Of a DNA stretch of 64,000 bases, positions 27,218-56,510 are shown piece after piece. How positions within the stretch are numbered: the first letter of the stretch is position 1; every line of letters starts with the position of its first letter. Location of the stretch: the IMG/VR virus record IMGVR_UViG_3300046171_000193, positions 32,001 through 96,000 of that record; one strand, written 5' to 3'. Origin of the DNA: a virus. A program made the translations under genes and the position numbers. A model generated the notes under the pieces. The model saw nothing but the letters and a program-made list of their open reading frames with translations. It had not been told where the DNA came from and did not search any database.

Positions 27218-29131
27218 ATGGCTACAACAGTACAAAATACTCAACTTGATTTTGACGCAGTTAAAAATAGTCTCAAAACCTTTTTTCAAGAAAAAGGTGA
27301 ATTTGCAGATTTTGATTTTGAAGCCTCTGGTCTTTCTAATGTTCTTGATGTTCTTGCTTATAATACTCATTACAATGCACTAACTGCTAACTTTGCTTTG
27401 AACGAAGCATTCCTTACAACGGCACAATTAAGAAGTTCAGTAGTATCTCATGCCGCAACATTAGGTTATGTACCAAGATCTCGTATTGCATCACGAGCCA
27501 CTGTGAATTTAAGTGTAAACCTATCAGGTGCTATCAATAGACCTTCGGCCGTCGTTCTCGAAGCAGGTAGTATTTTCACAGCTCCTGTTGGCGAAACAAC
27601 ATATACGTTTAGAACACTATCTGATATTACAGCAACAGATAACGGCGTTGGAGTATATAACTTTTTAAACAGTGATGGTACACGTGATATTTTAATATAC
27701 GAAGGCTCTATGACAAGAAAAAGATTTATTGTCGGCGAGAAAGGTGAACGTCAGCTTTATGTAATTCAAGATAATTCTATTGATACAACGACTGCAGACG
27801 TACGAGTATATGATACGCCAAGCAGTTCAAATTATGTTAACTATGCTCCTGTTACAAATGCTGTTACAGTTAACTCAAATTCTCGTTACTTTCAAATATC
27901 AGAAGCACCAAATGGTTTTTACGAATTAAACTTTGGTGATGGCATATCTTTTGGTAAGGCCCCTGAATCAGGTCAAATGATTCAAGTGCAATATTTGAGT
28001 TGTCTTGGCGCTGCTGCTAATGGTGCTGCCGTGTTTTCCCCAGGAGACACTGTAACAGTTAATGGCATTCAATACCTACTACAAGTAACTACTATTTCTT
28101 CGGCTGGTGTCGGTGGTCCTAGACAATCTTTAGAATCAATACGATTAAATGCGCCAATTGCTTTTGCTGCACAACAAAGACTTGTTACTGCCGATGACTA
28201 TAAAGCTGTGATACAAAGAAACTATCCAACAGTAACTGACTCTATTGCATGGGGTGGAGAGGATAACGTACCTGCAGATTACGGTAAAGTTTATTTGTCT
28301 CTTGTGTTTGAAAATGGTACAACCGAAAATCAAAAACAGGCTGTAAAAGATGCTATTGTTAGTGATGTGGCTTCTAATCTTTCCATTCTATCAATCGATA
28401 CTGCATTTCAAGATCCAGTTACTACATTTTTAGAAATTATTTTGACATTTAACTTTGATCCAAGTTTGACAGGACAAACAATTAAAGCGACAGAGGGAAA
28501 TGTATTTAACTCACTTGTAACTTATATTAATGAAGAATTAAAACAGTTTGGTGGTGTGTTTAGACGATCTGAGCTTTTAACTCGAATTGATGATATTAGT
28601 GAAGCAATTCTAAACTCTAAAGCTACTGTAAAGATGCAACAAAGATTTATACCTGATATGACTCAAAGCGCGACATATAACATGTACTTTCCTGTTGAAA
28701 TTTCTTCGCCATCTACAACTGATAATATTATTACATCATCTACGTTTATTTTTAATAATAAAGTTTGTTCTATCAAGAATGCTTTGTCGTTAACTAAACT
28801 ACAAATTGTAGATAATGTTGGTACAGTTGAAGTTGATAATATAGGATCTTATGATGCATTAAAAGGCACTGTAACATTAACCGGATTTAATCCATTCAGT
28901 ATTACAGCAGGAGTTAACTTTCTGAAAATTTCTTGTACGCCTGCAAACCAAGCAACTATTCGACCCTTACGTAGTTATATTTTAGATATTGACGAAGGTC
29001 CATCGTTTGCTTCAGCACAAGTTGATAGACAAGATACTGATGTTGTTTTAGGCGGATCAGGTAATACAGGAACTGGTATTACTGTTAGTTATGGTACCGG
29101 CAGTGGCGGTGGAGCTGGCGGAGGCTATTAA
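27218..29131 (+). CDS. 6: Baseplate wedge gp6
   Basis: LDFDAVKNSLK, DFDFEASGLS..LDVLAYNTHYNA, FGDG, QQRLVTADDY, YGKVY. Confidence 0.95.
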   Translation: MATTVQNTQLDFDAVKNSLKTFFQEKGEFADFDFEASGLSNVLDVLAYNTHYNALTANFALNEAFLTTAQLRSSVVSHAATLGYVPRSRIASRATVNLSVNLSGAINRPSAVVLEAGSIFTAPVGETTYTFRTLSDITATDNGVGVYNFLNSDGTRDILIYEGSMTRKRFIVGEKGERQLYVIQDNSIDTTTADVRVYDTPSSSNYVNYAPVTNAVTVNSNSRYFQISEAPNGFYELNFGDGISFGKAPESGQMIQVQYLSCLGAAANGAAVFSPGDTVTVNGIQYLLQVTTISSAGVGGPRQSLESIRLNAPIAFAAQQRLVTADDYKAVIQRNYPTVTDSIAWGGEDNVPADYGKVYLSLVFENGTTENQKQAVKDAIVSDVASNLSILSIDTAFQDPVTTFLEIILTFNFDPSLTGQTIKATEGNVFNSLVTYINEELKQFGGVFRRSELLTRIDDISEAILNSKATVKMQQRFIPDMTQSATYNMYFPVEISSPSTTDNIITSSTFIFNNKVCSIKNALSLTKLQIVDNVGTVEVDNIGSYDALKGTVTLTGFNPFSITAGVNFLKISCTPANQATIRPLRSYILDIDEGPSFASAQVDRQDTDVVLGGSGNTGTGITVSYGTGSGGGAGGGY

Positions 29132-30141
29132 TGTCACATATCGCTGATTATAATCGGATAGTTCCTAACTTCAGAAACTATAGCGTTGCAGAAGTTTTAC
29201 CGCAATACTTTAGAGAAGAATATCCTAATCTCATTGCTTTTATGGAAGCGTATTACGAATACGTAGACTCTGATGAATCAATTAGTGCAATACAAGATTT
29301 GTTTAGTGTATATGATATTGAAAGTACATCATTAGCCAATTTAGAATATATCTTTGGTACAATTGCTGATGGAGCTAACTCAACGTATTTTAGCGAACCG
29401 CGTGAAGTACTTCGCAACTTTGCTAATTTTTATAGAGTTAAAGGTACAAAGTATTCTGCCGAAGGTTTCTTTCGTGCATTCTTTGGTATTGATGTTGAGG
29501 TAGATTATCCGAAACAAAGAATATTTAAACTCAATCAGTCTCAGTCAACAATCGGTACTGAGTCATTGCATTTTATACAAGACGGTGCATTATATCAAAT
29601 ATTCTCAGTACTTGTTAAATCGGCTATTCCGCTCAATACGTGGAGAGATCTATATAAAAAGTTTGTACATCCGGCTGGATTCTTTTTAGGCGGTGAGGTT
29701 GTTCTAGAACTACCGTCTACAAACTCTGAACTCTTGGTTATGCCAGATAATATTGATGAACCGCCACCACCATTATTTGTTGAGGGTACGGCAAATTATG
29801 ATATACCATTTGGATTAGTAGAGCCTATTGGTTATCTACCTGACGATGCAGATTCTGATAGCGTTATTGAACGTATTAGCTTAAAAGCAACAGTTGATCG
29901 GTTTAAAGATATGCCTGCTGATGTATTTGCTGCATCATATGGTAGAATTGACCAGGCAAAAGATATTAACTCGCCGACGATGGATGACTCGGCAAAAGAC
30001 GCTGTATATGCATACGGTGTGAGAATGAGCAACGACATCGAAAGAATGGATAGAAATAGATGGTTCTATGATTCCGACGCTGGTAACCCAAGATATATGG
30101 CTCTTGGATATGTCGACTCAAATTACGTAGAACTTACTTAG
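29131..30141 (+). CDS. 7: Baseplate wedge gp7-like protein
   Basis: LPQYFREEYP..FMEAYYEY, FYRVKGT, FVHPAGF; follows gp6. Confidence 0.7.
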   Translation: MSHIADYNRIVPNFRNYSVAEVLPQYFREEYPNLIAFMEAYYEYVDSDESISAIQDLFSVYDIESTSLANLEYIFGTIADGANSTYFSEPREVLRNFANFYRVKGTKYSAEGFFRAFFGIDVEVDYPKQRIFKLNQSQSTIGTESLHFIQDGALYQIFSVLVKSAIPLNTWRDLYKKFVHPAGFFLGGEVVLELPSTNSELLVMPDNIDEPPPPLFVEGTANYDIPFGLVEPIGYLPDDADSDSVIERISLKATVDRFKDMPADVFAASYGRIDQAKDINSPTMDDSAKDAVYAYGVRMSNDIERMDRNRWFYDSDAGNPRYMALGYVDSNYVELT

Positions 30142-30150
30142 AGGTAAAAC

Positions 30151-31734
30151 ATGGCAATCACATTAAGAAATTCTAAAGGGACGGCATTGACCCACGTCGA
30201 ACTCGATGCCAACTTTACCACACTGCAAAATGCTGACTTAGATTCGGCAGCGGTTACGTCTATTGCGCAAGCTTTAGATAATGCGCAGGTTATTCCTTCA
30301 CATATCAATACACTTGCTGGCGATTCAGATGTAGATTTTGGGTCTAAAAAAATCTATTATGCCAATATGTGGGATTCTGAAGGAGCTCTTCCAAATGCTA
30401 CGACGTATCATGGTATGTTTGCTCACGTTCATGCAACCGGAGCAGGATACTTTGCTCATGGCGGAGCCTGGGTAAAGCTTGCTAATAACGCAGATCTTGG
30501 AACCGGTATTGACTCGGCCAAGACTATTGCGCTCATTGATAGTGCATACGTACAAGCAAGAGAAGGCATTGACAGTATCGGTGAATTATCTAACGTTAAC
30601 ATGTCTGGTATTGCAAACAACAAAATCCTTAAATGGGATTCAGGAACTCAACACTTTATTGTTGCTTCTGATGTAAGTGGCGGTGGAGGCGGTGGAGGTC
30701 TAGCATATGCAGACTTTAGTGTATCAGTCGCTGCAGCAGGTTCTGCTAACTTGGCATATAATAACGCAACAGGTGTGACTACTTACACTCCACCAGACTT
30801 ATCAAGCTATTTACAAAGCTATACTGTAACTGAAAACGATGTAACGAACCATCAAGCTGCATTGTCAATTACTGAATCTCAAATAAGTAACTTACAGGCT
30901 TATCTAACAAGTGAAACATCTCATGCTGATGTACTTGTAGATGGAGACTTTGCAAGTGCAGGATTTATGAAAACTAATGGATCCGGAACATATTCGATAG
31001 ACAATAGTACATACATTTCTCAGGGTCAATCGATTGATATGAACGGTACTGAGTTAATACTAGATCAAAATGGTAATACAAGTTTTCATGCAAGTACTGA
31101 TGATCAGATCGATATTAAAATAGGTGGTACAGATGTAGGATATTTTAATTCTACCGGACTTGTTGTTGATAATATTACATCTCAGGCAACAGGTACTCCT
31201 ACTCTCACTGCATCAACTGATATTAATATGGTCACAGGTGGCTCTGTTACAGTAAGTCAAAACAGTGGTGCAGGCGGTGGATTCAGGGTTGGTAGTATGA
31301 CAACGTCACAGCGTAATGCATTGTCAGCATCTAATGGTGAAATCATTTATAATACTACTAACAGTCAAATGGAAATTTATGAGCATAGCGCATGGCATCC
31401 GATGACAAAAGGTTCTAATGTATTTAATGTCACAAGTAGCGGTTCTAGCGATTATGTTTTTAATGATCCAGAGAGTCATTGGTTTACTTCATCAACAAAT
31501 GATCCTGTTCTCTATTTGCGTAGAGGCGAAACATATTACTTTGTTGTTAATGCTTCTGGCCATCCATTTCAAATTCGTGTAAGTAATGGTGGGTCTGCAT
31601 ATGCTGATGGTATAACAGGAAATACACAGGCCGTAGGAACGGTCGTATTTAAAGTTCCGATGGGTGCACCATCTACATTGTACTATCAATGTACTGCACA
31701 CTCGGGTATGGGTAACACAATAAACATAGTGTGA
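30151..31734 (+). CDS. Tail fibre-like virion protein with C-terminal cupredoxin-like domain
   Basis: ITLRNSKGTALTHVELDANF N-terminus; GHPF...LYYQCTAHSGM C-terminus. Confidence 0.7.
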   Translation: MAITLRNSKGTALTHVELDANFTTLQNADLDSAAVTSIAQALDNAQVIPSHINTLAGDSDVDFGSKKIYYANMWDSEGALPNATTYHGMFAHVHATGAGYFAHGGAWVKLANNADLGTGIDSAKTIALIDSAYVQAREGIDSIGELSNVNMSGIANNKILKWDSGTQHFIVASDVSGGGGGGGLAYADFSVSVAAAGSANLAYNNATGVTTYTPPDLSSYLQSYTVTENDVTNHQAALSITESQISNLQAYLTSETSHADVLVDGDFASAGFMKTNGSGTYSIDNSTYISQGQSIDMNGTELILDQNGNTSFHASTDDQIDIKIGGTDVGYFNSTGLVVDNITSQATGTPTLTASTDINMVTGGSVTVSQNSGAGGGFRVGSMTTSQRNALSASNGEIIYNTTNSQMEIYEHSAWHPMTKGSNVFNVTSSGSSDYVFNDPESHWFTSSTNDPVLYLRRGETYYFVVNASGHPFQIRVSNGGSAYADGITGNTQAVGTVVFKVPMGAPSTLYYQCTAHSGMGNTINIV

Positions 31735-31738
31735 TAAA

Positions 31739-33787: not shown

Positions 33788-33790
33788 ATA
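33783..33790 (+). promoter_or_regulatory. Late promoter
   Basis: TATAAATA upstream of gp9-like gene. Confidence 0.7.
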
Positions 33791-34810: not shown

Positions 34811-36187
34811 ATGGTTGCAATTATTACAGATAAATTTAAAAGACAAGTTCTTAACGATATTTTTACAAACGTTACAGATTCTGCGGCTACGTACTATATT
34901 GGTATTGGTAGATCACAAGACTGGAATGCTACGGACGCAGCTCCCACTCCTTTGAATACTGCAAAAGAAGAACGTGACTTTCGTTTAAATTTACAGGCTA
35001 TGAAAAAAGGTGAAGATGTTTCATATGTGATTCCTAGATATAACTGGTCTTCTGGTACAATTTATGCTTCGTATGATGATCATGTTCAAGGTTATCCAAC
35101 AAATGCATATTATGTTATGACAGATGAGTTAGCTGTTTACATGTGTTTACAGCAAGGTAAAGATGCTACAGGATCTTCTGTGACATCTACGGTTAAACCG
35201 ACAGGCACTTCTTTAGATCCTATTTCAACAGCAGACGGTTACGTATGGAAATACCTATATGGACAAACTGCTTTGCGTTCGGTAAAGTTTACATCAGCTA
35301 ATTATATTCCCGTACAGTTCGTTGACTCTGCCGGCGCTTCTGATCCTGCATTAGAGCAAGAACAAAAAACAATTCAGGATGCAGCCGTCAAAGGACAGAT
35401 TACTAGTATTAAGGTAGATAACGGTGGAACAGGATATACGTCTGCTCCAACTATTACATTTACCGGTAACGGAACAAAAACTCCTGGCGCAACAGCTACT
35501 GTATATAACGGAACTATTGTAAAAGTTGAGATGAATGATTCTGGTACAGGAAAAGCTTATGGCGCTGGATACGATTATGCATCAGTTCTATTTTCTGGTG
35601 GCGGTGGAACAGGAGCACATGCTCGTGCTGTAGTATCAACACCGTTAGGAATAGGTGGAGATGCAAGAGACGATCTTCGCTCAAGCGCTATTATGTTTAA
35701 TTCGAAGCTAATTGGCGACGAAACAAATGCGATGATTACAAGTAATGATTATAGGCAAGTAGGAATAATTAGAGATCCTAAAGTTGGTCCAGATTCTGCA
35801 GATTCAGATTTTGAAGGTCCTGCAGCAAACGTCTTAAATAAATTAAAGTTTGGTTCTATTGCTCAAAACTTTACCGAAGACAAAACAATTCTAGGATCCA
35901 CATCTGCTGCAAAAGCATATATCGATAACGCAGATTCAAGCTATGTATGGTATCATCAGACTGATTCTACTGGCTTTGCTACATTTATCGAAGGCGAAAC
36001 GATTACGGAGACTGATGGTAATGGTGAAGGCATCTTAGATTCAGCTTCGGTTGACGGTGATACATTGGCATATATAAAAGGTACAGTCGATCGATTGTCT
36101 GGTACAATATTGTACATCGATAATCGAGCTGCGATTGAAAGAGATCCCGCACAAACTGAAGACATAAAAGTAATAATTCAACTGTAG
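34811..36187 (+). CDS. 8: Baseplate wedge gp8
   Basis: IPRYNWSSG, YYVMTDE..VYMCL, DGYVWKYLY, SGTILYIDNR..QTEDIKVIIQL. Confidence 0.9.
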   Translation: MVAIITDKFKRQVLNDIFTNVTDSAATYYIGIGRSQDWNATDAAPTPLNTAKEERDFRLNLQAMKKGEDVSYVIPRYNWSSGTIYASYDDHVQGYPTNAYYVMTDELAVYMCLQQGKDATGSSVTSTVKPTGTSLDPISTADGYVWKYLYGQTALRSVKFTSANYIPVQFVDSAGASDPALEQEQKTIQDAAVKGQITSIKVDNGGTGYTSAPTITFTGNGTKTPGATATVYNGTIVKVEMNDSGTGKAYGAGYDYASVLFSGGGGTGAHARAVVSTPLGIGGDARDDLRSSAIMFNSKLIGDETNAMITSNDYRQVGIIRDPKVGPDSADSDFEGPAANVLNKLKFGSIAQNFTEDKTILGSTSAAKAYIDNADSSYVWYHQTDSTGFATFIEGETITETDGNGEGILDSASVDGDTLAYIKGTVDRLSGTILYIDNRAAIERDPAQTEDIKVIIQL

Positions 36188-43083: not shown

Positions 43084-43096
43084 TGAAAGGTTTATT

Positions 43097-44173: not shown

Positions 44174-44852
44174 GTTCGGTAACAAATACGATTCTGAATT
44201 TGTTAATAGACTTTTTAGAGAAATTTGTTATTTTAGCAGAGGCTATTATGTAAACGGCTGGTTTAAGTTTTATTGCTATACAGATAATCCAGAAGGATTA
44301 ATGCATGGTATTAATGTTATCCCTGCTAAAACAGATCCAACACTAAAAGGCGTATGGAATAAGTTACGTCTCTTTGATCCTTCTATGCCATATGTAAGAG
44401 AAGGCCATTACAATATTTACTTAGATTTAGATACGTTTGTACAAGATTGTATCTTTACACGTTTCAGTCACTTTGGTGAAAAGGACTGGAATACACTTCA
44501 CGTGTGTGGCGCGCCATGGAAAAATGATAAGAAAAGATACGGCAGATTATCGAACTATGATGTGACTATACATAGTTCAGTAATGGCATGGAAAGCACTT
44601 AGTCATTTTGAAGTATGGAATCATTTTAGTAATCACGGTTTACGAGATTATTATATGAGAAAGTATTCAGGAGGTATGGATAGATTCTTAGCACACGAAG
44701 ATGTAAACATGAAAACATTCAAGCGTGACTTTGTAAGATCTATGAAATACGATAAAAATATAAAAGATGCAGCTATTGTATCATTTGAGGAACTAGATGT
44801 ACAATTCGGAGATCTTATACCGAACTATAAAACTAAGCGAGAAAGTGTATAA
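44145..44852 (+). CDS. GT-A fold glycosyltransferase-like protein
   Basis: VKFGNKY, YCYTD, WNKLRLF, IYLDLD (DxD). Confidence 0.75.
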   Translation: MMIYNVITVKFGNKYDSEFVNRLFREICYFSRGYYVNGWFKFYCYTDNPEGLMHGINVIPAKTDPTLKGVWNKLRLFDPSMPYVREGHYNIYLDLDTFVQDCIFTRFSHFGEKDWNTLHVCGAPWKNDKKRYGRLSNYDVTIHSSVMAWKALSHFEVWNHFSNHGLRDYYMRKYSGGMDRFLAHEDVNMKTFKRDFVRSMKYDKNIKDAAIVSFEELDVQFGDLIPNYKTKRESV

Positions 44853-45420
44853 TGAATCTATGTATGGAATAGATGATCTTTATCGTATAAAAGATTTATC
44901 TCATTCTATGGATCATAAACACTGGGTCGGAAAAGAACATCTTGCAAAAAAGTTTTTTGAATTATATAATCACGACGCCGGGAAATTATTAGTACTCGGT
45001 GGATGGTATGGCATGATGGCTTATCAATTACGTGAGCAATGGCCTGATTCACATATGAATATAGAATCTACCGATATGGATCCTATGTGTGAAGAATTCG
45101 GATATGAATTATTTGGTGATAAAGATATTGCATTCTCCACCCTCAACATAAGTGACTCTTTTATTATAACACAATATACAGGGATTGTAAACACCTCTTG
45201 TGAGCATATGGAGCAAAAAGATTTAATTAATATAGTTAAATCAAAAGACCCAGATTGTTGGGTTGCATTTCAATCGAACAATTATACAGATTTAGATTCT
45301 CATATTAACTGTTATCCTTCGGCCGAGATATTTGCAGAGAGTTTAGAATTAGATTGGTATGCTGACATAGATACCCTAGATCTAGGTGATTTTCAAAGGT
45401 TTACAGTCATTGGAAAATAA
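44797..45420 (+). CDS. Class I SAM-dependent methyltransferase-like protein
   Basis: LVLGGWYG motif I, STDMD, VNTSCEHM, FQSNNY. Confidence 0.75.
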   Translation: MYNSEILYRTIKLSEKVYNESMYGIDDLYRIKDLSHSMDHKHWVGKEHLAKKFFELYNHDAGKLLVLGGWYGMMAYQLREQWPDSHMNIESTDMDPMCEEFGYELFGDKDIAFSTLNISDSFIITQYTGIVNTSCEHMEQKDLINIVKSKDPDCWVAFQSNNYTDLDSHINCYPSAEIFAESLELDWYADIDTLDLGDFQRFTVIGK

Positions 45421-46303
45421 AGTTGTATTTAGCGTATTCATTGATATTCCTGAAGATCGTTTAGATAATCCTGGATGGTATGATCAAGGTAAACAAGTCA
45501 TAACCGATAAAAGCAAAGTCACTAAACTTGCTTTACTGAATAATGCAGAGCTTGTCACACAAAGGCAAAAGCAATACGCTAATGATATTGGTGCAGACTA
45601 TATACTATTTAAATACGATAGTACATATAAAAAATTCTTTGATGATATAAAAAATAGGTTTACAGAGATCTCGGAATATGATATAGTTAACTTTTACAAA
45701 CACCGGGTGATGAGGGATTTAGCAGATGAATACGATTATGTATGTTATCTCGATTTTGATGTTATACCAAATACTACTGACTGTGTATTTCAAGTACATA
45801 ATGTAGATAAAGCTTTAGCAGTCGCTGAATCTAATAGATTGGCGATTCGTGGTAAGGTTATAAAATCAAAATATTACAATTTTTGTATTCGTAATCCTGC
45901 TACTAAATATTGGAATACTCATGCGCTTCTTACGGAAGAAGGATACGATCCAGAAAATGATGTATTTAATACTGGAATTATGGCAGCATCATCTAAGATA
46001 ATAAAGCAATTAGATTATTTTAAAGACTTTGAATATGTTATTAAACTTATGTCTGATGTAAAGCATGATGAGTTTTCGCTTTATCCAGAGAATATACAAA
46101 GAGTATTTAATTATGATAATGAGACTGTATTTTCTTTTTTAATTCAAACTAGAAATATACAAATAAATTATATGAAAAAAGAATGGCATTGGCTAGTAGA
46201 TGAGCTTATGTCAGAACCAAAGCACGTAGATCCTAAAGCAAAATTATATCATTTTATAAACAAGAAAATGGAGTGGATTAAAGATATAAATAAGAACAAA
46301 TAA
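45410..46303 (+). CDS. Nucleotide-diphospho-sugar transferase-like protein
   Basis: FYKH, CYLDFDV (DxD), FNTGIM, YDNET, LYHFINK; TTG start inferred. Confidence 0.7.
   Translation: MENKVVFSVFIDIPEDRLDNPGWYDQGKQVITDKSKVTKLALLNNAELVTQRQKQYANDIGADYILFKYDSTYKKFFDDIKNRFTEISEYDIVNFYKHRVMRDLADEYDYVCYLDFDVIPNTTDCVFQVHNVDKALAVAESNRLAIRGKVIKSKYYNFCIRNPATKYWNTHALLTEEGYDPENDVFNTGIMAASSKIIKQLDYFKDFEYVIKLMSDVKHDEFSLYPENIQRVFNYDNETVFSFLIQTRNIQINYMKKEWHWLVDELMSEPKHVDPKAKLYHFINKKMEWIKDINKNK
46285..46292 (+). promoter_or_regulatory. Late promoter
   Basis: TATAAATA. Confidence 0.7.
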
Positions 46304-46319
46304 CCTTAGAGTGTTGCAC

Positions 46320-46670
46320 ATGGCCCAGTACGAAGAATTATCAATAGATAAAGGTACCGATATTACTCTCCAATTAGAATTGGAAGATACTAGTGGTAAT
46401 CCGAAAAATCTTACAAATTACACAGTTGCAGGTAAAGTTAAGAAAACTTACAACACATCAGATAGTGATGCGACTGCATTTACGGCCGAGGTAAAAGCTC
46501 CAGCTACAGGCGGAGTTGTAAACCTTTCATTAACAAATACTCAAACAGGCGCATTTAAAGCCGGGCGATACGTATATGATGTAGAAATTTCTTTCGTAGA
46601 TAGCGATGCACAAACAGTGATAGAAAGAGTTCTTGAAGGCACAATCACAGTCACACCATCCGTGACATAG
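46320..46670 (+). CDS. Fibre adaptor / BppU-like Ig-fold virion protein
   Basis: IDKGTD, NLTNYT, GRYVYDVEI, RVLEGTITVTPSVT. Confidence 0.7.
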   Translation: MAQYEELSIDKGTDITLQLELEDTSGNPKNLTNYTVAGKVKKTYNTSDSDATAFTAEVKAPATGGVVNLSLTNTQTGAFKAGRYVYDVEISFVDSDAQTVIERVLEGTITVTPSVT

Positions 46671-46686: not shown

Positions 46687-49600
46687 ATGAAGGTTGTTGT
46701 TGGTCAAAACACGATCGTAAAAAAGATTACTGTTGGAACTCCACTGCGGGTGGGTTCGGCAGCAAATGGTTCATTAACAGGTTTAGACGATGTCAACGGT
46801 TCTATCAACCTTAGTGATGGAACAATACTTCAATATGACAGCGCTACCGGAAAATTTAACCATGTAACTCCTGCAGGAATAACAGGAAGTGGATTAACAG
46901 TAAATGATGCATCTGGATTAGGTTCAGTTGTATATGATTCAAGTTCAGCAGTTCTAACTTATGCTGGACCTTCTAGCGACAGCGTCCATTCGTTATTTAA
47001 TTCTACATACGATTCTAATTCCCTTGGTACATTATCATATACAAATGGAACTGTAAGACTTGTCGGTCCTACATCTGCTCAGATACGTGCACTCTTTAGT
47101 GCAGGAAATAGTTTAAATTATAATGAAACTACTGGAGAATTTTCAGTAACTGTACCAGATACAAGCGCGTCTTTTGATTCTGATTTTGGCACAAAAACTA
47201 CTGACGATTTAGCTGAAGGTTCAAATTTATATTTTACGGATTCTCGTGGTCGAGCTGCGATTGGTGTTACAGATAACGGAGTCGGCTTTGGATCTCTTGC
47301 ATACAATAGCGCATCAGGTCAAATAACATATACCGGTACTTCTGTTGCTAACATGCGAAGTGTTATCAACGTTGGATCAAATCTTGCATATGATTCTACT
47401 ACTGGTAAAATTACATTTACTGGTAGTCTAGGCGGAGACTTTGATGCCGGTGACGCTCAACAATCTATATCAGTAGTCAATGATAATGGTGACTACGGAT
47501 CACTAGCATATGATAATGCTAGTGGCGTATTTACATTTACAAAAGTTACAGATTCTGATATAAGAGGATCTATATCTGCCGGTGGTGATTTAGTTTACGA
47601 TCAAACTACTGGCCAAATAAGTTATTCAAAAAGAACAGATGCTGATATTAGATCGCTCTTTAGCGCTGCAGGAGATCTAACATATAATAATACTACTGGT
47701 AATTTTAGTATTACGACAGGAGCTCACTATGCAGACAGCGACGCTCGCGCAGCTTTTTCTGTTAATTTTGTTGGTGATACTGCTTTCGATAGTAGCCCAT
47801 ATGGAGGGGCTTCTTATAATTCTAGCACCGGTCTACTTACTATTAACGGTACTACTGATTCGAACATACGTAATTCCTTAACTGTACAGGACTCTGGCGG
47901 TTTAGGATCTCTTACATATAACGTAAAACAAGGTAGGATAGTATACACTGGCCCGGGCGTCAGTGATGTTTCAAGTCTTTTATCAGCTAATGTTGATTCT
48001 CTTTCAATGGGTAAACTTACCCTTGATTCGAGCAAAGGTCAATTTACTCTTAAATTAGAAGATGATAGTGTACGTGCTCTCTTTAGTGTGGTATCAGATC
48101 AAGAAGGTGGAGCAAATCTTACATACGACCAAGCAACCGGTGTATTTACTCATAGCGGTCCAAGTGACTTAGATCTTCGCGGTAAAGTTAGTGCTAGTGA
48201 TTTAGGCGGCGACGGCTCATTTACTTATTTTGAATCTGGCGGAGTCTTTACATATACAGGTCCAAGTCCTGCCGAAGCAAGAGCACACTTTGAAGGTGGA
48301 CTTGGTATTGATTATATCGAATCAACCGGCACATTTAGGCTTGATAGTTCTGCAAATATTGTAACAGGAAGTATTGTTACCGGCAAGTTAACTACAGATT
48401 CAGCTACAATTAATAGAGCCACAATCGAAAGTAGATTACGCCTTGATACTATTAGATCGTTAACCGATAGTGGTGATATTGATATTATAGCTGGTGATGA
48501 TGTTGAGATCACCGCTGGTGATAAAATTAATTTGCTTACATCTAATTTACGAACTTCAGCAGATAAACTTCGTCTTTTATCTGACGATAGTAATATTAAT
48601 AATATTTCTGGTGGTGGACTTATACTCGGCGCTGGATCTAATGAAAAAAGTATTTTACATCAGCAATACTTTGGCTATGACCAGTTTGTAATAGGCGCAA
48701 ATACAGGACTACATGTTCCTGGCTTTATGACCGGCCGAACTGTCGATTCTATTAATAAACGCATAGATGAGTTACCTGATTCTGCTCAGATGAAAGGTAT
48801 TCTATCTGCTGGTCCTGGTCTATCTTATGATAATATTAATGGTATATACAGAATCACATCTTCAGGTGTTGTTGCTGGAACTTACGGTGATGCAACAAAT
48901 GTTCCAAGATTTTCCGTAGATTCTCTTGGGCAAATTGATAGCATTAGTAATGTACCAATATCAACAGTTAATAACTTCGTATATGATTCTGCCACTGGCA
49001 ATCTTAAGATTACAACTGCGACAGATAGTTATAATGTCGGACTTACATTAGATCCTTTTACAACTAATAATCTTGTAGAAGGTCCTAACAATCTATATTA
49101 TACTCGAGCACGATTTGATAGTGCATTAGATGATAGTACTTCTGAAACAAGAATACGTCAATATTTTAGAACAGATCTTGCATCTGATTCGTCTCGTCAA
49201 CAAATAAGAAAATATATTAATGTTGGCGCAAGTTTAACATACGACTCAGCAACTGGTAAGTTAACAACTAATCAAGCTCTAGATTCTAACAGCGACGTAA
49301 GATTCCAAAATATCACACAGTCTGGGCAGTTACGTGGTCCGGCAGAGTTCATAATCGATCCGGCGGCTATTGGTGACAATACTGGTACAGTTAAGATCCT
49401 TGGTAACCTTCAGGTTGAAGGTACGCAAACGATTATTAATTCTACAACTGTTTCTGTCAATGATAAAAATTTAGTATTAGGTGATTCGGCTGCAGATTCT
49501 TCTGCCTTACACGGCGCTGGAATTACTTTAGGCGGAACTAACATTGTAGACAAACCATCGTTTACATATTCTCATGCCGATAAACGATTTGTATTTAATC

Positions 49601-50352
49601 GCAATATTCAAGCCGATAGTTTCTACGGCGATGTTACAGGTAACGTAACAGGCGACGTCGTTGGTAATCTTACTGGTAACGTAACAGGTCAAGTATCTGA
49701 TATATCAAATCACAATACAGATAGTCTTGCTGAAGGTTCTACTAATCTTTATTTTACGATACCAAGAGTAAGAAGTTCACTTTCCGTTGTTGATGCAGGT
49801 GGAGATGGTAGTTTTGTTTATGATTCATCAGCTGGACAGTTTACATATACTGGACCTAGCCCAGCAGAAACAAGGCAGCATTTAAATGTTCTTGACGCTG
49901 GCGGAGATGGAAGTTTAACATACGACAGCTCGCTTGGTAAATTTACATATACCGGTCCTTCGCCAACAGAAGCAAGAGCTCACTTTCAAGTAAATGATAC
50001 TGGTGGAGATGGTTCATTATCATATGATTCAGCAACTGGTACATTCACTTACGTCGGTGCATCTGAAGCCGATTTTTATCAGCATTTAAAAAATAATCAT
50101 GATAGCCTTGGCGATCTTACTTTTGATTCGACATATGGAAGTAAAGGCGGATTTGCTTTACATACTAGACATATACTAAGACAAAGAGAAGTTTATGCTG
50201 ACTCTTTTATTAATTCACAAGAGTATTTTTTAATGTATAGCGGAACAACAGGTGGAACACTTGTAAAAGTTAGGGCTGATACACTTGCTTCTAAAATGGG
50301 TGGCGGTGGCGGTGGTGCCGGCGGTGGATTGCTTGGTTATATTAACTTGTAA
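46687..50352 (+). CDS. Long tail fibre protein, DS-rich, repeat-built
   Basis: Repeated GSLxYDSxxGxFTYTGP units, LAEGSNLYFT motifs, GNLQVEGTQTIINST motif. Confidence 0.8.
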   Translation: MKVVVGQNTIVKKITVGTPLRVGSAANGSLTGLDDVNGSINLSDGTILQYDSATGKFNHVTPAGITGSGLTVNDASGLGSVVYDSSSAVLTYAGPSSDSVHSLFNSTYDSNSLGTLSYTNGTVRLVGPTSAQIRALFSAGNSLNYNETTGEFSVTVPDTSASFDSDFGTKTTDDLAEGSNLYFTDSRGRAAIGVTDNGVGFGSLAYNSASGQITYTGTSVANMRSVINVGSNLAYDSTTGKITFTGSLGGDFDAGDAQQSISVVNDNGDYGSLAYDNASGVFTFTKVTDSDIRGSISAGGDLVYDQTTGQISYSKRTDADIRSLFSAAGDLTYNNTTGNFSITTGAHYADSDARAAFSVNFVGDTAFDSSPYGGASYNSSTGLLTINGTTDSNIRNSLTVQDSGGLGSLTYNVKQGRIVYTGPGVSDVSSLLSANVDSLSMGKLTLDSSKGQFTLKLEDDSVRALFSVVSDQEGGANLTYDQATGVFTHSGPSDLDLRGKVSASDLGGDGSFTYFESGGVFTYTGPSPAEARAHFEGGLGIDYIESTGTFRLDSSANIVTGSIVTGKLTTDSATINRATIESRLRLDTIRSLTDSGDIDIIAGDDVEITAGDKINLLTSNLRTSADKLRLLSDDSNINNISGGGLILGAGSNEKSILHQQYFGYDQFVIGANTGLHVPGFMTGRTVDSINKRIDELPDSAQMKGILSAGPGLSYDNINGIYRITSSGVVAGTYGDATNVPRFSVDSLGQIDSISNVPISTVNNFVYDSATGNLKITTATDSYNVGLTLDPFTTNNLVEGPNNLYYTRARFDSALDDSTSETRIRQYFRTDLASDSSRQQIRKYINVGASLTYDSATGKLTTNQALDSNSDVRFQNITQSGQLRGPAEFIIDPAAIGDNTGTVKILGNLQVEGTQTIINSTTVSVNDKNLVLGDSAADSSALHGAGITLGGTNIVDKPSFTYSHADKRFVFNRNIQADSFYGDVTGNVTGDVVGNLTGNVTGQVSDISNHNTDSLAEGSTNLYFTIPRVRSSLSVVDAGGDGSFVYDSSAGQFTYTGPSPAETRQHLNVLDAGGDGSLTYDSSLGKFTYTGPSPTEARAHFQVNDTGGDGSLSYDSATGTFTYVGASEADFYQHLKNNHDSLGDLTFDSTYGSKGGFALHTRHILRQREVYADSFINSQEYFLMYSGTTGGTLVKVRADTLASKMGGGGGGAGGGLLGYINL
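49786..50070 (+). repeat. Three tandem 102-bp (34-aa) repeats DAGGDGSxxYDSxxGxFTYTGPSPxExRxH
   Basis: Asp codons at 49792, 49894, 49996; a further copy near 48199. Confidence 0.85.
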
Positions 50353-50369
50353 CTTAAATGTGAATTTTG

Positions 50370-50377
50370 TATAAATA
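50370..50377 (+). promoter_or_regulatory. Late promoter
   Basis: TATAAATA. Confidence 0.75.
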
Positions 50378-50397
50378 AGAGTAAAGAAGTAGGAATT

Positions 50398-50736
50398 ATG
50401 GCAGCAGTATTTTCAACGAGCTACGTTAAAAACGTAGGAAGCACAGAGGCCACTCTGTATACCGCACCGGCTGGCCTAACCGGTAGGCACCTAGTTGTAA
50501 GTTTAGTTGCTACAAATATATTTGGATCTGCAATACCGATAAGCGCCAAGCTAGTACAAGGCGCAGATTCGGTTTTTATTGCATATAATAAAAGAGTTTT
50601 AGCAAATGATACTGTAGATTTGCTTATAAATAACTCAAAGATAATGATACAAAATGGCGATGTAATAAAAGTTTCTGCGCCAGTAGACGATGCGTTTAGT
50701 ATAATTATGACGGTAGTAGAGGAAGTTGAAACATGA
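50398..50736 (+). CDS. Small beta-sandwich virion protein
   Basis: TLYTAPAG, KIMIQNGDVIKV motifs; AGGA RBS. Confidence 0.65.
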   Translation: MAAVFSTSYVKNVGSTEATLYTAPAGLTGRHLVVSLVATNIFGSAIPISAKLVQGADSVFIAYNKRVLANDTVDLLINNSKIMIQNGDVIKVSAPVDDAFSIIMTVVEEVET

Positions 50737-51035
50737 GTTACGGACACGATAATGAGGGCGGTATCTATACTGGAACCTCTTATAGTGACAAGACTTTCTA
50801 CGGGTTTAAGCTCGATAGCATCGGCGATCTAACTTGTACTGTTATAAGATCAGATGATAGTGATGTTGTTGAACTTCCTTCAGAAGTTTCTGCATCTTAC
50901 TTTGATTCAACGGTCGATTCTTTAGGAGTTACATTTGCTGACCCTGACGGATACCGTGCACACTTTTGGTCCATGGACGCAGTAACATTTAGGTTTAATC
51001 AAAATAACGGCCACCTTGAAATGGTTGTATTCTAA
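50733..51035 (+). CDS. Small virion-associated protein
   Basis: TFYGFKLD..GDL, GHLEM; ATGA overlap; GAGG RBS. Confidence 0.6.
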   Translation: MSYGHDNEGGIYTGTSYSDKTFYGFKLDSIGDLTCTVIRSDDSDVVELPSEVSASYFDSTVDSLGVTFADPDGYRAHFWSMDAVTFRFNQNNGHLEMVVF

Positions 51036-51055
51036 TGATTCGGAGTAATTAATCT

Positions 51056-52651
51056 ATGGCAACAATTATAGATCTCGGTAAACTAAGATTTGAGTATCGT
51101 GGTGAGTGGTCAAATTCCACTACTTACGAGGCTAATGATGTTGTCAAGTATGGTGGCAACCTTTACGTATACAAATATGGTTTAAAAACTTCAGGTAATA
51201 TTCCACAGACAGCTTCCCTGTATTGGGACTTGATGGTAGAAGGCTTTAAGTTTGAAGGAGCATACGATTCTGACGCAACATATAACATTGGCGATGGATT
51301 TTCATATGGTGGTATTGTTTATATCACAACAGCAAATAGTATAAGCGGAACACGTCCACCAAATGCTGGATATTCTACATTTACTGATGGTATTCAATAT
51401 GAAGGCACGTGGATTAATTCAAATCAATACCAAAAGTCAGATATTGTTAAGTATGGTCCAAAGTCATACATTGCTACACAAGATCCTCCAATCGGGGCGG
51501 TCCCATTACAATCTGCGTATTGGCAAGTATTTTCTGACGGAATATCCTTTGACGATGCCTACGACAGCAATTTAACATATAAGCCTGGCCAAGTAGTTAA
51601 ATGGGGTCCAAACTCTTATATAGCTCAGGCAGACGTTATAGCAGGGGATTCTCCTAATGTTGCCGGCAATTGGAATTCCATCATGGAAGGCCAAGAATGG
51701 AGAGATTCATACGCTTCTTCTACAAAATATTATAAAAATGAAATTGTAAAATGGGGTGCTCAAGGTTATCGTGCTAAACGTGATAATATTTTTAACTCTC
51801 AACCAGATAATAATCCAACAGACTGGCAACTAATTAGTGAGGGTTTTTTACCAAAAGGTGCATGGAACAGCGGAACTCAATATTATAAAAATGATGCTGT
51901 ACAATATGGTAATAATTTTTATAGAGCAAAACAATCTTCTTTAAATCAACTTCCTGATACAGCTACTACTTATTGGGAAGAATTAACTTCCGGTGTGAAT
52001 ACCCGTGGTTCTTGGGCATCCACCACAGTTTATTATGAAGGTGATGTTGTTATAGACGGTAATAAATCGTATATTAAGAATGGAACAACACACACTTCTG
52101 CTGCAGATTTTGCAACTGATGCGTCAAACTGGACACAGCTTACAAACGGAATTAATTATAGAGCAGGCGGTTACGATAGTTCTGCTAACTATTTAATAAA
52201 TGATGTTGTACAATATAGTACAAGCTCTTATATAGCACTAGAAAATTTTGCTGCTTCTGGTAATTTTGGTAGTGAGCTTTCGGGTGGTAAATGGGAACTA
52301 TTAGCTGCAGGCGGTGGTTCTGTTTTACCATCAATAACTAATGCTGACAGAGGTAAATTTTTAGGATCGACAGATGGTGTTGCTTATAGTTGGCAATATC
52401 CAGGTAAAGCTGATAAGGTTTATTATGTTGCTAAAGGCGGTAATGCAGATTCTGGTCTTGGTCAAACAATTGATACGGCTTGGGGATCAGTTAAATTTGC
52501 GTTAGATAACGTAACAGGTCCAGCTACTATCTACGTAAAAGAAGGTTCTTACCAAGAAAGCTTACCTATGACTATAGGTAACGACATAACACTTAGAGGT
52601 GATGGCCAAAGAAACACTGAAATTAGGCCAGCTGCTGGTGATTCGAAATAA
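51056..52651 (+). CDS. Tail fibre/spike N-terminal part with eight ~50-aa CBM5/12-like repeats
   Basis: IDLGKLRF start; GxW/YxSxTxYxxxDxVxYG repeats; ends within a beta-helix start (IYVKEGSYQE..LRGDGQRNTEIRP). Confidence 0.8.
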   Translation: MATIIDLGKLRFEYRGEWSNSTTYEANDVVKYGGNLYVYKYGLKTSGNIPQTASLYWDLMVEGFKFEGAYDSDATYNIGDGFSYGGIVYITTANSISGTRPPNAGYSTFTDGIQYEGTWINSNQYQKSDIVKYGPKSYIATQDPPIGAVPLQSAYWQVFSDGISFDDAYDSNLTYKPGQVVKWGPNSYIAQADVIAGDSPNVAGNWNSIMEGQEWRDSYASSTKYYKNEIVKWGAQGYRAKRDNIFNSQPDNNPTDWQLISEGFLPKGAWNSGTQYYKNDAVQYGNNFYRAKQSSLNQLPDTATTYWEELTSGVNTRGSWASTTVYYEGDVVIDGNKSYIKNGTTHTSAADFATDASNWTQLTNGINYRAGGYDSSANYLINDVVQYSTSSYIALENFAASGNFGSELSGGKWELLAAGGGSVLPSITNADRGKFLGSTDGVAYSWQYPGKADKVYYVAKGGNADSGLGQTIDTAWGSVKFALDNVTGPATIYVKEGSYQESLPMTIGNDITLRGDGQRNTEIRPAAGDSK

Positions 52652-55247
52652 AACAATGTTCTTTGTTAACAGTGGAACACTTGTCGAAGAATTTAAGTTT
52701 AGTGGATTGACTGGCTTTGCTTTAGATTCTGCAGGTGGCCAGCCACACGACATTGAATACGCAACTATCGGTGGTGTATATTTTAGATTAGATCCAAATG
52801 CGGTCATTTATAAATCTCCATATATTAAAGAATCAACTGCTTTTTCAAGTGGTGGTATAGGCGCTGTTATCGATGGTGGCTTGAATAGCAATGCTGCAAA
52901 CCAAGGTTCTATGGTTTTCCATACATTTACTCAGGTGCACAATGGTGGTGCAGGTTTCTGGGTACGAAGAAATGGTAAATCTGAGATCGTTTCTTGCTTT
53001 ACTTACTATAACGATTTCGGTCTTGTAACGACCGGTGGTGGTAAGATTAGAGCGCTAAACTGTAACAACTCGTACGGTACATATGGTGCTGTTGCTGAAG
53101 GATTTGATTCTGGTGAAGTTGCTATTACAGGTAAAATTAGGGGTCAATCACTTCATTATGATGGTAATACAATTACTGGTGGTACTGAATTCAGTGTAGG
53201 ATCACTAATTACTGGTTTAGCTAACGACAACAACGTCAATAGAGCAACACGTGCTGCTAATGTTTCTTTCCATTCACCAAATCACGGTTTGTTAACCGGT
53301 GAAAAAATTGCTATCTCAGGAATGACACCTTCAACATGGGCGTCACTATTTACAGCAGATAGTTATTGGGTAACAGTTACAGACTCGTCTAACTTTATTC
53401 CATATATAGACTCAGCTAGATCAACAGGTATTGATACACAATTAGCTGGTGGAAGAAATACAGTTTCTTCAACTATTACGGACATTGCTCGTCAAAATCC
53501 GGTTCGACTGACTGTTACAACATCTGCTAATACAGATTCATATGCTCCACACTATATTCAAAGTGTTGGTGGCATGACGCAAATGAATAACATTTGGGTT
53601 ACATTTGATAGTGGAGCCGCAACAGCAGGTACCACCTTGTATGCAAGACAAGCTGAAAATACTCAGATTCGAGTTAGTCAGCCTAATCCGGCATCTGAAG
53701 GTACTCAAACAAAAGGAACAACTGGCGGATCAACATATGATTTTGGTTCTAATAACCAAACAATAACACTTTATAGAGGTTCAAGATATAGATTCCTTGG
53801 TGACTCTGCAGCCGCTGTAACAAAATCGGTTGCTGGTGGGCGTTTCTATCTTTCTACATCAACGAGCTGGGATTCTAGTAACTTTACTGATGAATATACA
53901 ACTGGAGTTCTAAATAGCAGAAATACATTAGATGGCGATTCGACTCTTGATAGTACCGTAGACGGACTGATTATTGAAGTTGGACCTACAACTCCATCAA
54001 CATTGTATTATAATTGGGATAGTGCTTCATCTGCTTCTACAATGAGAGGACAAATTAACATTGTTAATCCTCCATTCATCGACGCTCAGTCATATAACGT
54101 TTATACGTCTGGTGGTCAAATCAGATTGATGGACTCAGGCGATTATTTTGACTCTGCTCATTGGAACGCTGAAGCACCAACTGCTAGTGTAATTAATACG
54201 CAGCCATCAGAAGACAAAATCTATATTGAGAACATGACGTTCCCTGGATTTACCGGTGGTGAGACAATTACACAAGGCGCAGTATCTGCTAGCATTGTTA
54301 ATAGTAACTTCATTAGAGGACAATATGGCTATATTGTAGCACTAGATACTTTGACAGGACAACCAAAACCTGGCCAATCTATCTCATTTGCTGATGATCA
54401 GGATAGTGCTGGATACGGAAGAGCATATGTTGTTTCTAGTGTAACCGGATACGACTCATCGACGGCTCAAGCAACACTAACATTATCACAGCAAAAACTT
54501 GAGACAAACGCTTCGGCTGATGACGCTGTCGCAACAATTAGAACTAATTATTCTCAGGTACGATTAACAGGTCACGATTTCTTGAGCGTGGGTACTGGTG
54601 GAGTAACTACAACAAATTATCCTGGAACTCCAACTCAACCTGCTTCTCAAGGTAACGAAGTTATTGAGACTGCTCCAGGTCGAGTTTACTTTATTTCGAC
54701 CGACCAAGATGGTAACTTTAGAGTTGGTAATTATTTCCGAATCGATCAGGCTACTGGACGAGCAACATTGGATGCATCTGCATTTGATCTTTCTGGTTTG
54801 ACGTCATTGAGACTTGGTTCAATTGGTGCACAAATTGGTGAATCAATTAACGAGTTCTCATCAGATGCAACGTTATCTGGTAACTCAAACCTTGCTGTTC
54901 CAACGGAGAAAGCAACTAAAGGTTATGTAGATGAAGCACTTAATTCTTTGGTTGATGCAATAGGTGCTGGAAATTATGACTCTGCTAATACTACATGGGC
55001 GACTGGTGCAAATACAGGAAATCCATTCCTTGACTCTGATCGTGGAGACTCTGGCGGAAGAAGAGCATTAGGATATACTATTGGACCGATAACTGTTTCT
55101 GAGATAGATTACGATTCGTATACCGATGAAGTTAAATCTTATAAAGAAAAAATGGTTTTAGGATTTGGATTTACAGAAGAAAAAAGCGTTTCTATTACAT
55201 ATAATAGCGACGGATCAATAGAACGAATACAAACGACCGTGTTATAA
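52647..55247 (+). CDS. Tail fibre/spike C-terminal part (beta-helix); probably the +1 continuation of the upstream gene
   Basis: NKTMFFVNSG.., KSPYI, SEIVSCFTYY, RLTGHDFLSVGTG, STDQDGNFRVG, INEFSSD. Confidence 0.75.
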   Translation, partial: NKTMFFVNSGTLVEEFKFSGLTGFALDSAGGQPHDIEYATIGGVYFRLDPNAVIYKSPYIKESTAFSSGGIGAVIDGGLNSNAANQGSMVFHTFTQVHNGGAGFWVRRNGKSEIVSCFTYYNDFGLVTTGGGKIRALNCNNSYGTYGAVAEGFDSGEVAITGKIRGQSLHYDGNTITGGTEFSVGSLITGLANDNNVNRATRAANVSFHSPNHGLLTGEKIAISGMTPSTWASLFTADSYWVTVTDSSNFIPYIDSARSTGIDTQLAGGRNTVSSTITDIARQNPVRLTVTTSANTDSYAPHYIQSVGGMTQMNNIWVTFDSGAATAGTTLYARQAENTQIRVSQPNPASEGTQTKGTTGGSTYDFGSNNQTITLYRGSRYRFLGDSAAAVTKSVAGGRFYLSTSTSWDSSNFTDEYTTGVLNSRNTLDGDSTLDSTVDGLIIEVGPTTPSTLYYNWDSASSASTMRGQINIVNPPFIDAQSYNVYTSGGQIRLMDSGDYFDSAHWNAEAPTASVINTQPSEDKIYIENMTFPGFTGGETITQGAVSASIVNSNFIRGQYGYIVALDTLTGQPKPGQSISFADDQDSAGYGRAYVVSSVTGYDSSTAQATLTLSQQKLETNASADDAVATIRTNYSQVRLTGHDFLSVGTGGVTTTNYPGTPTQPASQGNEVIETAPGRVYFISTDQDGNFRVGNYFRIDQATGRATLDASAFDLSGLTSLRLGSIGAQIGESINEFSSDATLSGNSNLAVPTEKATKGYVDEALNSLVDAIGAGNYDSANTTWATGANTGNPFLDSDRGDSGGRRALGYTIGPITVSEIDYDSYTDEVKSYKEKMVLGFGFTEEKSVSITYNSDGSIERIQTTVL

Positions 55248-55262
55248 TGGTAGAGGTAAAAA

Positions 55263-56510
55263 ATGGCAATTAATGTTTTACAATATAATCAGCTGATAAA
55301 ATCTGTTAATGCTAAGAGCGATCAGATTGCGACTCAACGGCGTATAAGAGACTCAGCAGATTCTGCGATAGGAACTCTTCCTGCTCAAATAACGGCATTA
55401 GCAGATTCTATTGCAAATTACGATAGTTTAATTGACAGTGCTCAGCAGTATGTAGCCAACTTTGGAGGAGATTTAAGCCTACTTGGGCTATGCGACTGCC
55501 ATTTTATGTTTTATTCTAGTCCTGTAGAATGCGTATGCACGTGGCAATATATTGTAGATTTATGCGATTATGCTGGATATTCGAGTGTAGGATGTCTGTG
55601 TCTTGATGGAGTTACTACTAACTGCTGTCATGGGCAATGTGGATTTAATTGTAACTGGACAGTTCCAGCTGGTACTAATAGAGTACAATTTGAAATCTGG
55701 GGACCGGGTGCTTCTACTACTTGGGGATCTTGTTGCGCATTTAGCCCCAATGGTATAACTGGTGCATACTTGTCTCAAATTATTTGTGTCTCTCCAGGTG
55801 ATACATTTTGTCTTCAATCAGGATGTGCTATTTGCTGTTATGCAAAAGGCTGTGAAGGTGGTTATCCAGCTAGTAATATAGGAACTCATAGTGCGGTATA
55901 CGGTTGTACTACTGCAACAGGCTCGGCTGTTTGTATGTGTATGTGTGCAATGAGCGGATATTCTAATCTGGCATGTGAAATGGTAGAACGTGATGGTTGT
56001 TGTGGTGCTTGGACTCAAGGATACTGCAGAGGCTATTGGAATTCTGGTAATTGTCTATGCACTCAAGGTCACTGGATGTGCTTTGAGAACAGCCGAGGAA
56101 TGTTCGGTTATGAAGGCCACCAAGGACAAGGTGGCTACTGTCAATGTACAATGCCCTATATGCCTTCTAGATGTACAGTTGCATATACATCAATTAACAC
56201 CGGTTCTTGGAATGACATTAGAGTGCCTAACACTTGTTTTACAGTTCCTGGTATCCTTTCAAAAGGATTTTTTAGTAACGACAACTACGGAAATGCGTGT
56301 TCTCAAGGTACTCCTAAATTCCCATGTATTCAATGTGATTGCTTTACTTCACAAACATGTTGGGGTGGACAGGCCTGCCAAAACTGTTGTGGCTATAGGC
56401 GAATTCCAGGTGCAGGTGGGGCGGTGAACCACGCAATGGGTGGTGGTACTGCTTGGTGTGGTGATATTGGCCGCGGCGGCGCAGTATACTTACGATGGGG
56501 TTGCATATAA
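55263..56510 (+). CDS. Cys-rich glycine-rich-domain fibre tip protein 1
   Basis: WTVPAGTNRVQFEIWGPG motif; about 44 Cys in 415 aa. Confidence 0.7.
   Translation: MAINVLQYNQLIKSVNAKSDQIATQRRIRDSADSAIGTLPAQITALADSIANYDSLIDSAQQYVANFGGDLSLLGLCDCHFMFYSSPVECVCTWQYIVDLCDYAGYSSVGCLCLDGVTTNCCHGQCGFNCNWTVPAGTNRVQFEIWGPGASTTWGSCCAFSPNGITGAYLSQIICVSPGDTFCLQSGCAICCYAKGCEGGYPASNIGTHSAVYGCTTATGSAVCMCMCAMSGYSNLACEMVERDGCCGAWTQGYCRGYWNSGNCLCTQGHWMCFENSRGMFGYEGHQGQGGYCQCTMPYMPSRCTVAYTSINTGSWNDIRVPNTCFTVPGILSKGFFSNDNYGNACSQGTPKFPCIQCDCFTSQTCWGGQACQNCCGYRRIPGAGGAVNHAMGGGTAWCGDIGRGGAVYLRWGCI

Follow-up and report, generated by a model that had tools for sequence, protein, structure and literature searches.

In the general O-glycosylation system of Bacteroidetes, exported proteins are modified at the sequon D-(S/T)-(A/I/L/V/M/T); Aah and TibC heptosylate autotransporter adhesins, and SdgA and SdgB glycosylate the Ser-Asp repeats of staphylococcal proteins. 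In tailed phages, virion proteins come together in the cytoplasm. Virion glycosylation in mycobacteriophage is said to have been described by Freeman et al. 2023, and we know of no Asp-Ser (DS) sequon in that system. Pelagimyophages and cyanomyophages possess a host recognition cluster, a hypervariable block that follows a VrlC-like gene and holds fibres together with genes for GT8 glycosyltransferases (GTs), heptose (rfaE-type) genes and radical-SAM cassettes (Zaragoza-Solas et al. 2020, PMC7029224); in the parts of that paper available to us, the GTs are read as modifying the host O-chain and a dipeptide bias is not mentioned. Here we describe a 64,000-nucleotide stretch (hereafter the window) of the IMG/VR record IMGVR_UViG_3300046171_000193, in which the outer baseplate and fibre proteins encoded at 29131-56510 carry a marked excess of the dipeptide DS, and we consider what this excess may mean.

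The window is part of an IMG/VR contig of 151,681 bp with an estimated completeness of 83%, and derives from an uncultured marine T4-like myophage. In gp6 it shares 42% identity with Phage C48C1, and 31-34% with Methylophilales phage Melnitz, Pelagibacter phage HTVC008M and cyanomyophages. The tail and baseplate genes (14096-36187) include gp6, gp25, a gp7-like wedge, a gp10-like connector and gp8; a protein of 1750 amino acids (aa) follows gp8 at the VrlC position, and from 41675 on fibre genes are interspersed with enzyme genes. The order gp8, large VrlC-position protein, fibres is that of HTVC008M, and the arrangement from 41675 on, with fibres, a GT8-like gene, an epimerase and a PfkB kinase, matches the host recognition cluster, the radical-SAM genes of the window being located elsewhere. 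Unlike in the described clusters, the locus carries the DS signature, which is limited to one clade and absent from HTVC008M, Mosig and Melnitz. Eight DS-rich genomes were complete enough to be judged (G000, G001, G006, G009, G013, G018, G019 and G029) and were compared with five DS-poor ones (C48C1, G030, G032, Melnitz and HTVC008M); the estimated completeness is 100% for G006, 89% for G018, 86% for G019, 78% for G030 and 100% for G032, and C48C1 is complete. G001 is a 135-kb contig, collinear with the source genome and 85-100% identical to it in most genes. The metagenomes from which the genomes with the DS signature originate are all aquatic, and a search of 50,697 cultured phage records turned up no DS-rich member of the clade.

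In the open reading frames (ORFs) of 29131-56510, DS occurs 129/61.6 times (such figures are observed/expected throughout); with a z of 8.6 it ranks first among the 400 dipeptides, the runner-up reaching 3.6. Ser-Asp (SD) is neutral (64/61.6) and Asp-Thr (DT) is depleted (37/59.7). The genome outside this interval has 117/152 DS, the inner baseplate and tail genes (14096-29131) have 7/17.2, and gp32, gp25 and gp6 have 0, 0 and 1/3.4, respectively. When the fibre and the spike are set aside, the remaining 12 structural ORFs of the interval still hold 64/36.4 (Poisson p 2e-5). Both Ser codon families, TCN and AGY, are in use in proportions roughly as elsewhere, which places the signal at the protein level; a DNA-level motif as its cause was thereby ruled out. 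The nearest named relative, C48C1, is DS-poor, both genome-wide (224/252.6) and in its giant fibre (8/14.8). The excess is real and selected. In the preliminary description of this DNA, DS had been counted by hand in the fibre, the spike, gp8 and the smaller proteins, and every one of these counts was exact on recount; the near-absence of the bias from gp32, gp6 and gp25 and the three YDS repeats of the 51056 protein were likewise borne out.

The DS-rich proteins of this interval are encoded on the plus strand. The largest contribution comes from a 1221-aa fibre (46687-50352) composed of diverged hairpin-plus-short-helix modules, with 40/12.9 DS (z 8.3 from composition-preserving shuffles), 13 SD and 5 DT, and with an enrichment in each of its three thirds; self-BLAST at E<1e-3 detected no internal repeats in it. 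Across eight IMG/VR relatives (66-83% identity) this fibre has 33-45 DS, with no change at 19 of the 40 sites. The spike/tail-fibre gene (51056-55247; PHROG 9851), present here as two ORFs, has 7/3.4 and 20/5.6 DS, the second ORF (52599-55247) with a shuffle z of 6.7; 12 of its 20 DS lie within the central residues 208-527, a region without a cyanophage counterpart, and the spike homologues of S-CAM3, Mosig and S-SSM7 are not DS-rich. The baseplate wedge protein gp8 (34811-36187; PF09215) has 8/3.1 DS, and its orthologues have 38/16.9 in the clade, with every member enriched, versus 12/10.2 in outgroups; across the clade part of its DS sites are common and part have turned over. Another baseplate wedge protein (29131-30141; PF23786) has 6/2.4, with 18/9.4 in its clade orthologues versus 1/2.0 in the outgroup. 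In the gp10-like baseplate-fibre connector (30151-31734) all seven DS fall within residues 31-163, with 9-residue repeats GIDSAKTIALIDSAYVQAREGIDS among the DS sites of the N-terminal 163 aa; compared with cyanophage homologues, with which it has only the HGMFAHVH domain in common, the protein carries the DS repeat segment as an insertion, and all seven sites are retained in G001. Smaller contributions come from a 128-aa fibre-module protein (41675-42061; 4/1.2), a 100-aa protein (50733-51035; 4/1.4), the four DS of which are retained in relatives, and a Cys-rich protein (55263-56510; 5/1.3), DS-rich in its N-terminal 62 aa and with the five pairs within residues 30-58. As a separate observation, gp6 (window 27218-29131) is strongly depleted of DS in the clade (7/23.9 over six genomes), with 9/12.1 in outgroups.

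The sequence setting of DS was characterised in 15 DS-rich proteins from 5 genomes (22,073 aa). These contain 647/198.8 DS (3.26x), and all other D-X or X-S pairs are at or below 1.14x, with DT at 0.51x, DA at 0.80x and DG at 0.73x. Against a background of 0.315, the frequency of large hydrophobic residues is 0.59 at position -1 and 0.61 at +4 but only 0.07 at +2, where a small residue stands, and they recur at +7/+8; the distances between successive DS have modes at 9 and 15 residues. DS in the other proteins of the same 5 genomes is without such a pattern. Typical units are IDSAYINAR/VDSDAVINI, NLVAAINELDSDIG, YYTxxRxDSD and GSLTYDSxxGxFTYTGPS, and the IDSAY[VI]xAR unit was detected in at least 120 IMG/VR stretches. 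A literature search with the motif strings gave no match, nor did the pure 9-mer repeat segment in a tblastn search of cultured phages. Fibre DS sites that are replaced in relatives become DP, GP, DA, NA, SS and similar; paralogous modules carry YNS, YDN, YDQ, TDAD or SPxE instead, and distant homologues have DA, DG and DD beside DS, so that N, Q, A, G, D or P may take the Ser position. The DS of C48C1 fibres lack the -1/+4 hydrophobic context, which suggests that the modules themselves are missing there rather than that they contain other residues; the use of Ala or Gly at the same cap positions in C48C1 was ruled out, as DA and DG of its fibres also lack this context. Since the DS segment is an insert in the 30151 protein and the spike has DS-poor homologues, the excess travels with particular repeat modules, and within the DS-rich genomes it is located in proteins carrying these module types.

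With the Bacteroidetes sequon, to which the preliminary description had likened it, the signal shares an Asp directly before Ser, and the Ser is most often followed by Ala (31 of 129 sites). The fit is nonetheless poor. The sequon accepts Thr, whereas DT is depleted here; A, I, L, V, M or T follows the Ser at 44% of the 129 sites versus a background of 37%, D, S, N and G being common as well; and the substrates of the system are exported proteins, while the assembly of phage virions is cytoplasmic. The Aah/TibC and SdgA/SdgB systems resemble our case in their dense Ser modification of repetitive surface adhesins, and ADP-heptose genes are present here, but SD is not enriched and the DS pairs lie 9-15 residues apart, not in tandem. 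The mycobacteriophage case shares with ours glycosyltransferases encoded by the phage and the notion of virion proteins coated with glycan; it concerns another type of phage, and in the present one any glycan would be hypothetical.

In our assessment the best-supported explanation, to which we give an even chance, is that the DS excess is a structural signature of modular fibre repeats. The outer baseplate and fibre proteins of the clade would be assemblies of many short diverged units, namely a hairpin-plus-helix unit of ~34 residues, a 9-residue unit h-D-S-x-x-h-x-x-h and 25-residue units such as NLVxAINELDSDIG, each starting or turning with Asp and a small polar residue. The Asp may act as N-terminal cap to a short helix, in which a hydrophobic staple would join the residue ahead of the Asp to the fourth one after it, or may end the first strand of a tight hairpin with the Ser at the exposed next position. 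Dozens of units per protein would necessarily produce dozens of DS pairs, and the shuffling of units between fibre genes could render the bias common to several otherwise unrelated proteins. Helix N-caps with a hydrophobic staple and tight beta-hairpin turns are general motifs of protein structure and normally accept S, T, D, N or G. The DS units are like them in the hydrophobic residues before Asp and four after, the small residue after Ser and the helical periodicity thereafter. In an AlphaFold2 model of the 128-aa protein, with a predicted local distance difference test score (pLDDT) of 75, D65 caps the N-terminus of a helix, a hairpin turn begins at D114 and D37/S38 stand just before a helix, which gives one clear cap and one near-cap among the four DS. 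The fibre model, built with 9 sequences, is unreliable (pLDDT 34); in it, 17 of the 40 DS are at helix starts (6) or at the ends of first hairpin strands (11), versus 3.8 at random, and 7 of the 65 other Asp residues occupy such places. No confident trimer structure was obtained, and the capping or turn role of Asp is therefore one that we infer.

Several points weigh against a structural origin. Given the low pLDDT of the fibre model, only local secondary structure underlies the positional statistics. Unlike in ordinary caps and turns, Ser after Asp is near-exclusive here, and a purely structural role leaves the avoidance of Thr and the preference for Ser over Ala or Gly unexplained. The DS enrichment of gp8, a conserved globular fold, throughout the clade and with partial turnover of sites looks like selection for the dipeptide itself. 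The DS repeats have no Pfam family or solved structure by Pfam and PDB sequence searches, and the DS excess co-distributes with a clade-specific glycosyltransferase operon, which is considered below.

Of the other explanations, an origin of the excess in chance, amino-acid composition or recent tandem repeat expansion might be entertained on the grounds that Asp and Ser are both abundant in the fibre proteins; it has virtually no probability left, being already refuted by the shuffles of fibre and spike, and SD, of the same composition, is not enriched. Expansion in particular is at odds with the lack of self-similarity in the fibre and with sites that are kept at 66-83% identity, and, in line with the view of the preliminary description that repeat expansion alone is insufficient, BLAST-detectable repeats do not account for the excess, which is spread over several proteins. 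Binding of sea-water Ca2+ or Mg2+ by Asp and Ser at repeat boundaries, along the fibre axis or in hairpin loops, could stiffen the fibres, and we consider it improbable. Its appeal lies in the aquatic origin of all signature-bearing genomes and in the C-terminal fibre modules (D-A-G-G-D-G-S-h-x-Y-D-S), which in a PDB sequence search weakly but repeatedly match calmodulin EF-hand pairs (E about 0.01). These E-values are marginal, however, positions 3 and 12 of the EF loop hold non-ligand residues, the fibre model has a hairpin at the EF-like site and not a helix-loop-helix, and most DS sites are missing further acidic neighbours. Heptosylation of the DS serines by a GT9-like enzyme using ADP-heptose (hldD/hldE), or their glycosylation and methylation by a glycosyltransferase-methyltransferase-glycosyltransferase (GT-MT-GT) block, as the preliminary description had proposed, is very improbable as well. 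The genes concerned are indeed present and located among the fibre genes. Those at 42064-46303 (plus strand) encode an unknown 339-aa protein, a coiled-coil 358-aa protein, a 235-aa protein (44145-44852) resembling nucleoside diphosphate (NDP)-sugar transferases, a 207-aa protein (44797-45420) with a methyltransferase-like motif and a 305-aa protein (45386-46303) that is GT8-like by way of homologues carrying PF01501; none of them is DS-rich, and the block sits inside the host recognition cluster. A second set (58719-63976) comprises SGNH-like, GT9-like, carbamoyltransferase, NAD-epimerase (hldD-like) and PfkB kinase genes, of which the GT9-like ORF (59635-60555) scores 15.3 bits with PF01075, below the cut-off of 22, and PF01075 is found in only 11% of the members of its nearest Atlas clusters. 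In 4 contigs the DS-rich form of the spike is accompanied by the GT9 cassette, and in 3 others the two are replaced together, but this link is one of physical linkage within a single swapped segment. G001 is without everything from 55263 to about 64700, the whole GT9-like/hldD/PfkB cassette included, and DS is still in excess in its fibre (33/11.4), its gp10-like protein (10/4.4) and its 132-aa protein (5/1.3). No homologue of any gene of the GT-MT-GT block or the GT9 cassette was found in G006, G018 and G019, the giant fibres of which have 123/38.5, 116/31.5 and 102/37.0 DS, with DT depleted too; conversely, the GT-MT-GT block is present in G030 and G032, neither of which has a DS-rich protein, and a search with the GT8-like gene gave 80 loci, about 60 of them without a DS-rich neighbour. 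The block is thus doubly dissociated from the excess, and the cassette does not track the DS-rich proteins, which also separates our case from Aah/TibC. A DS excess in relatives lacking the transferases was the very observation that the preliminary description had named as speaking against its proposal. Of its glycan-coat reading, the DS excess itself stands, as real, directional, Ser-specific, conserved and confined to outer baseplate and fibre proteins, and the named enzymes are not supported. It should be noted that generic Pfam GT models (PF00535, PF00534 and PF01501) lack the sensitivity needed here, PF01501 failing to detect even the GT8-like gene of the window, so that negatives obtained with them count for little.

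Another set of enzymes corresponds better to the distribution of the excess. An operon of seven overlapping genes lies a short way upstream of the window (genome 24545-29224; window -7455 to -2776; locus L003:4545-9224) and includes a GT8-like gene (266 aa), two GT25 genes, a second GT8-like gene (216 aa) and a 199-aa gene with a weak likeness to MptE/Maf. DS, often as D-S-A/D at a helix or turn start, may be the recognition element for a modification of exposed virion proteins by this operon, an account that we regard as possible, though clearly less probable than the structural one. The GT25 genes exceed the Pfam cut-off of 24 with 42.7 and 33.8 bits, whereas the MptE/Maf and GT8 assignments are below threshold. 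Homologues of the operon (44-67% identity) are present in all eight judgeable DS-rich genomes, and the DS-poor genomes lack it or hold a single gene or a weak match: of the operon, C48C1 possesses the 199-aa gene alone, G030 nothing and G032 no more than a weak match to one GT25 gene (GT25b, 24% identity). Searched against the 50,697 cultured phage records, the 199-aa gene was found in C48C1 only, and not in Melnitz or HTVC008M, and the GT25 query gave weak partial matches in three cyanophages only; in IMG/VR the 199-aa gene has more than 580 homologous loci, and the contigs examined all belong to the same T4-like clade. Just 9 of 205 ORFs are common to G006, G018 and G019 yet missing in C48C1, and 3 of these 9 are glycosyltransferases. 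A modification tag would also fit the Ser specificity, the DT depletion, the restriction to outer virion proteins and the clade-wide enrichment of gp8. On the other side, the DS-rich genomes form one clade (100% support), and the nested and sister placements of C48C1 relative to it differ by 1 log-likelihood unit (approximately unbiased test, p 0.43), so that C48C1 was ruled out as a second independent contrast and the co-distribution of operon and DS amounts to one phylogenetic contrast. No TATAAATA late-promoter motif stands directly upstream of the operon, any modification of the virion proteins is putative, and the published view of GT genes in such phages, as far as the available parts of PMC7029224 go, is that of host O-chain modification. 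The passages retrieved from a marine phage proteomics paper report no phage glycosylation. Put in its full form, and held slightly more tentatively still, the idea is that the clade, one of abundant uncultured marine phages, might mark exposed baseplate and fibre parts with Asp-Ser at helix starts and turns and decorate these serines through the GT25, GT8-like and Maf/MptE-like operon, giving a putative glycan coat.

The DS signature is strong and clade-wide, and either account would give it some significance. If structural, it would define new fibre repeat families beyond any Pfam model or solved structure and would allow receptor-binding proteins to be recognised in marine viromes by a simple sequence marker. 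If it were a modification tag, it would represent the first motif-directed virion glycosylation in T4-like phages, a virus-encoded glycan coat on the particle of a Gram-negative phage, with a bearing on host recognition, on the evasion of adsorption traps and on the reading of marine myophage GT genes, currently assumed to modify the host surface.

A number of further observations concern the DS-bearing proteins and their neighbours. The 119-aa protein encoded before the fibre (46311-46670, plus strand; PHROG 1084/3304, a family annotated as tail-fibre assembly) comes with a late-promoter motif. Its gene adjoins a DS-rich fibre in every clade genome, directly upstream of the giant fibre in the window and in G006, G018, G019, G013 and G029; the homologue in HTVC008M adjoins a DS-poor fibre. 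Within the giant fibre, the three EF-hand-like modules (E about 0.01) correspond to residues about 1020-1125 (window 49740-50060). The spike is a single gene in relatives and is split here into 51056-52651 and 52599-55247 by a 1-nt insertion near 52645; the extra base lies in window 52630-52655, which reads GATTCGAAATAA here and GATTCAAATAAA in relatives, and the undivided ORF of L011 and L018 has 1381-1399 aa. An assembly error may have produced the split, or else it reflects a genuine frameshift or a pseudogene.

After the spike come two proteins with a very high Cys content (415 and 398 aa; window 55263-58617), neither of which is present in G001. They could form an enzyme-substrate pair with the radical-SAM/SPASM enzyme cluster at window 5900-9762; as partners of DS, the radical-SAM enzymes were ruled out, being missing from G019 and G013. 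In the gp10-like connector, residues 75-110 (window 30370-30480) form a conserved TYHGMFAHVHxTGxGYFAH domain; many cyanomyophages, as well as Mosig, C48C1 and Microcystis phage Ma-LMM01, have it in fibre or baseplate proteins. At the end of the C-terminal domain of this connector (window 31600-31734) stands STLYYQCTAHSGMGNTINIV, which resembles the Cys-His-Met ligand motif of type-1 copper (cupredoxin) proteins, and a degenerate copy of this motif, STLYYNWDSASSASTMRGQINIV, occurs in the spike. Finally, the locus L111:7000-7138 (minus strand) belongs to a DS-rich fibre of 1921 aa, with 66 DS versus 17 expected, the N-terminal 53 residues of which are 50-56% identical to the N-terminus of the coliphage T4-type distal long-tail-fibre protein gp37.

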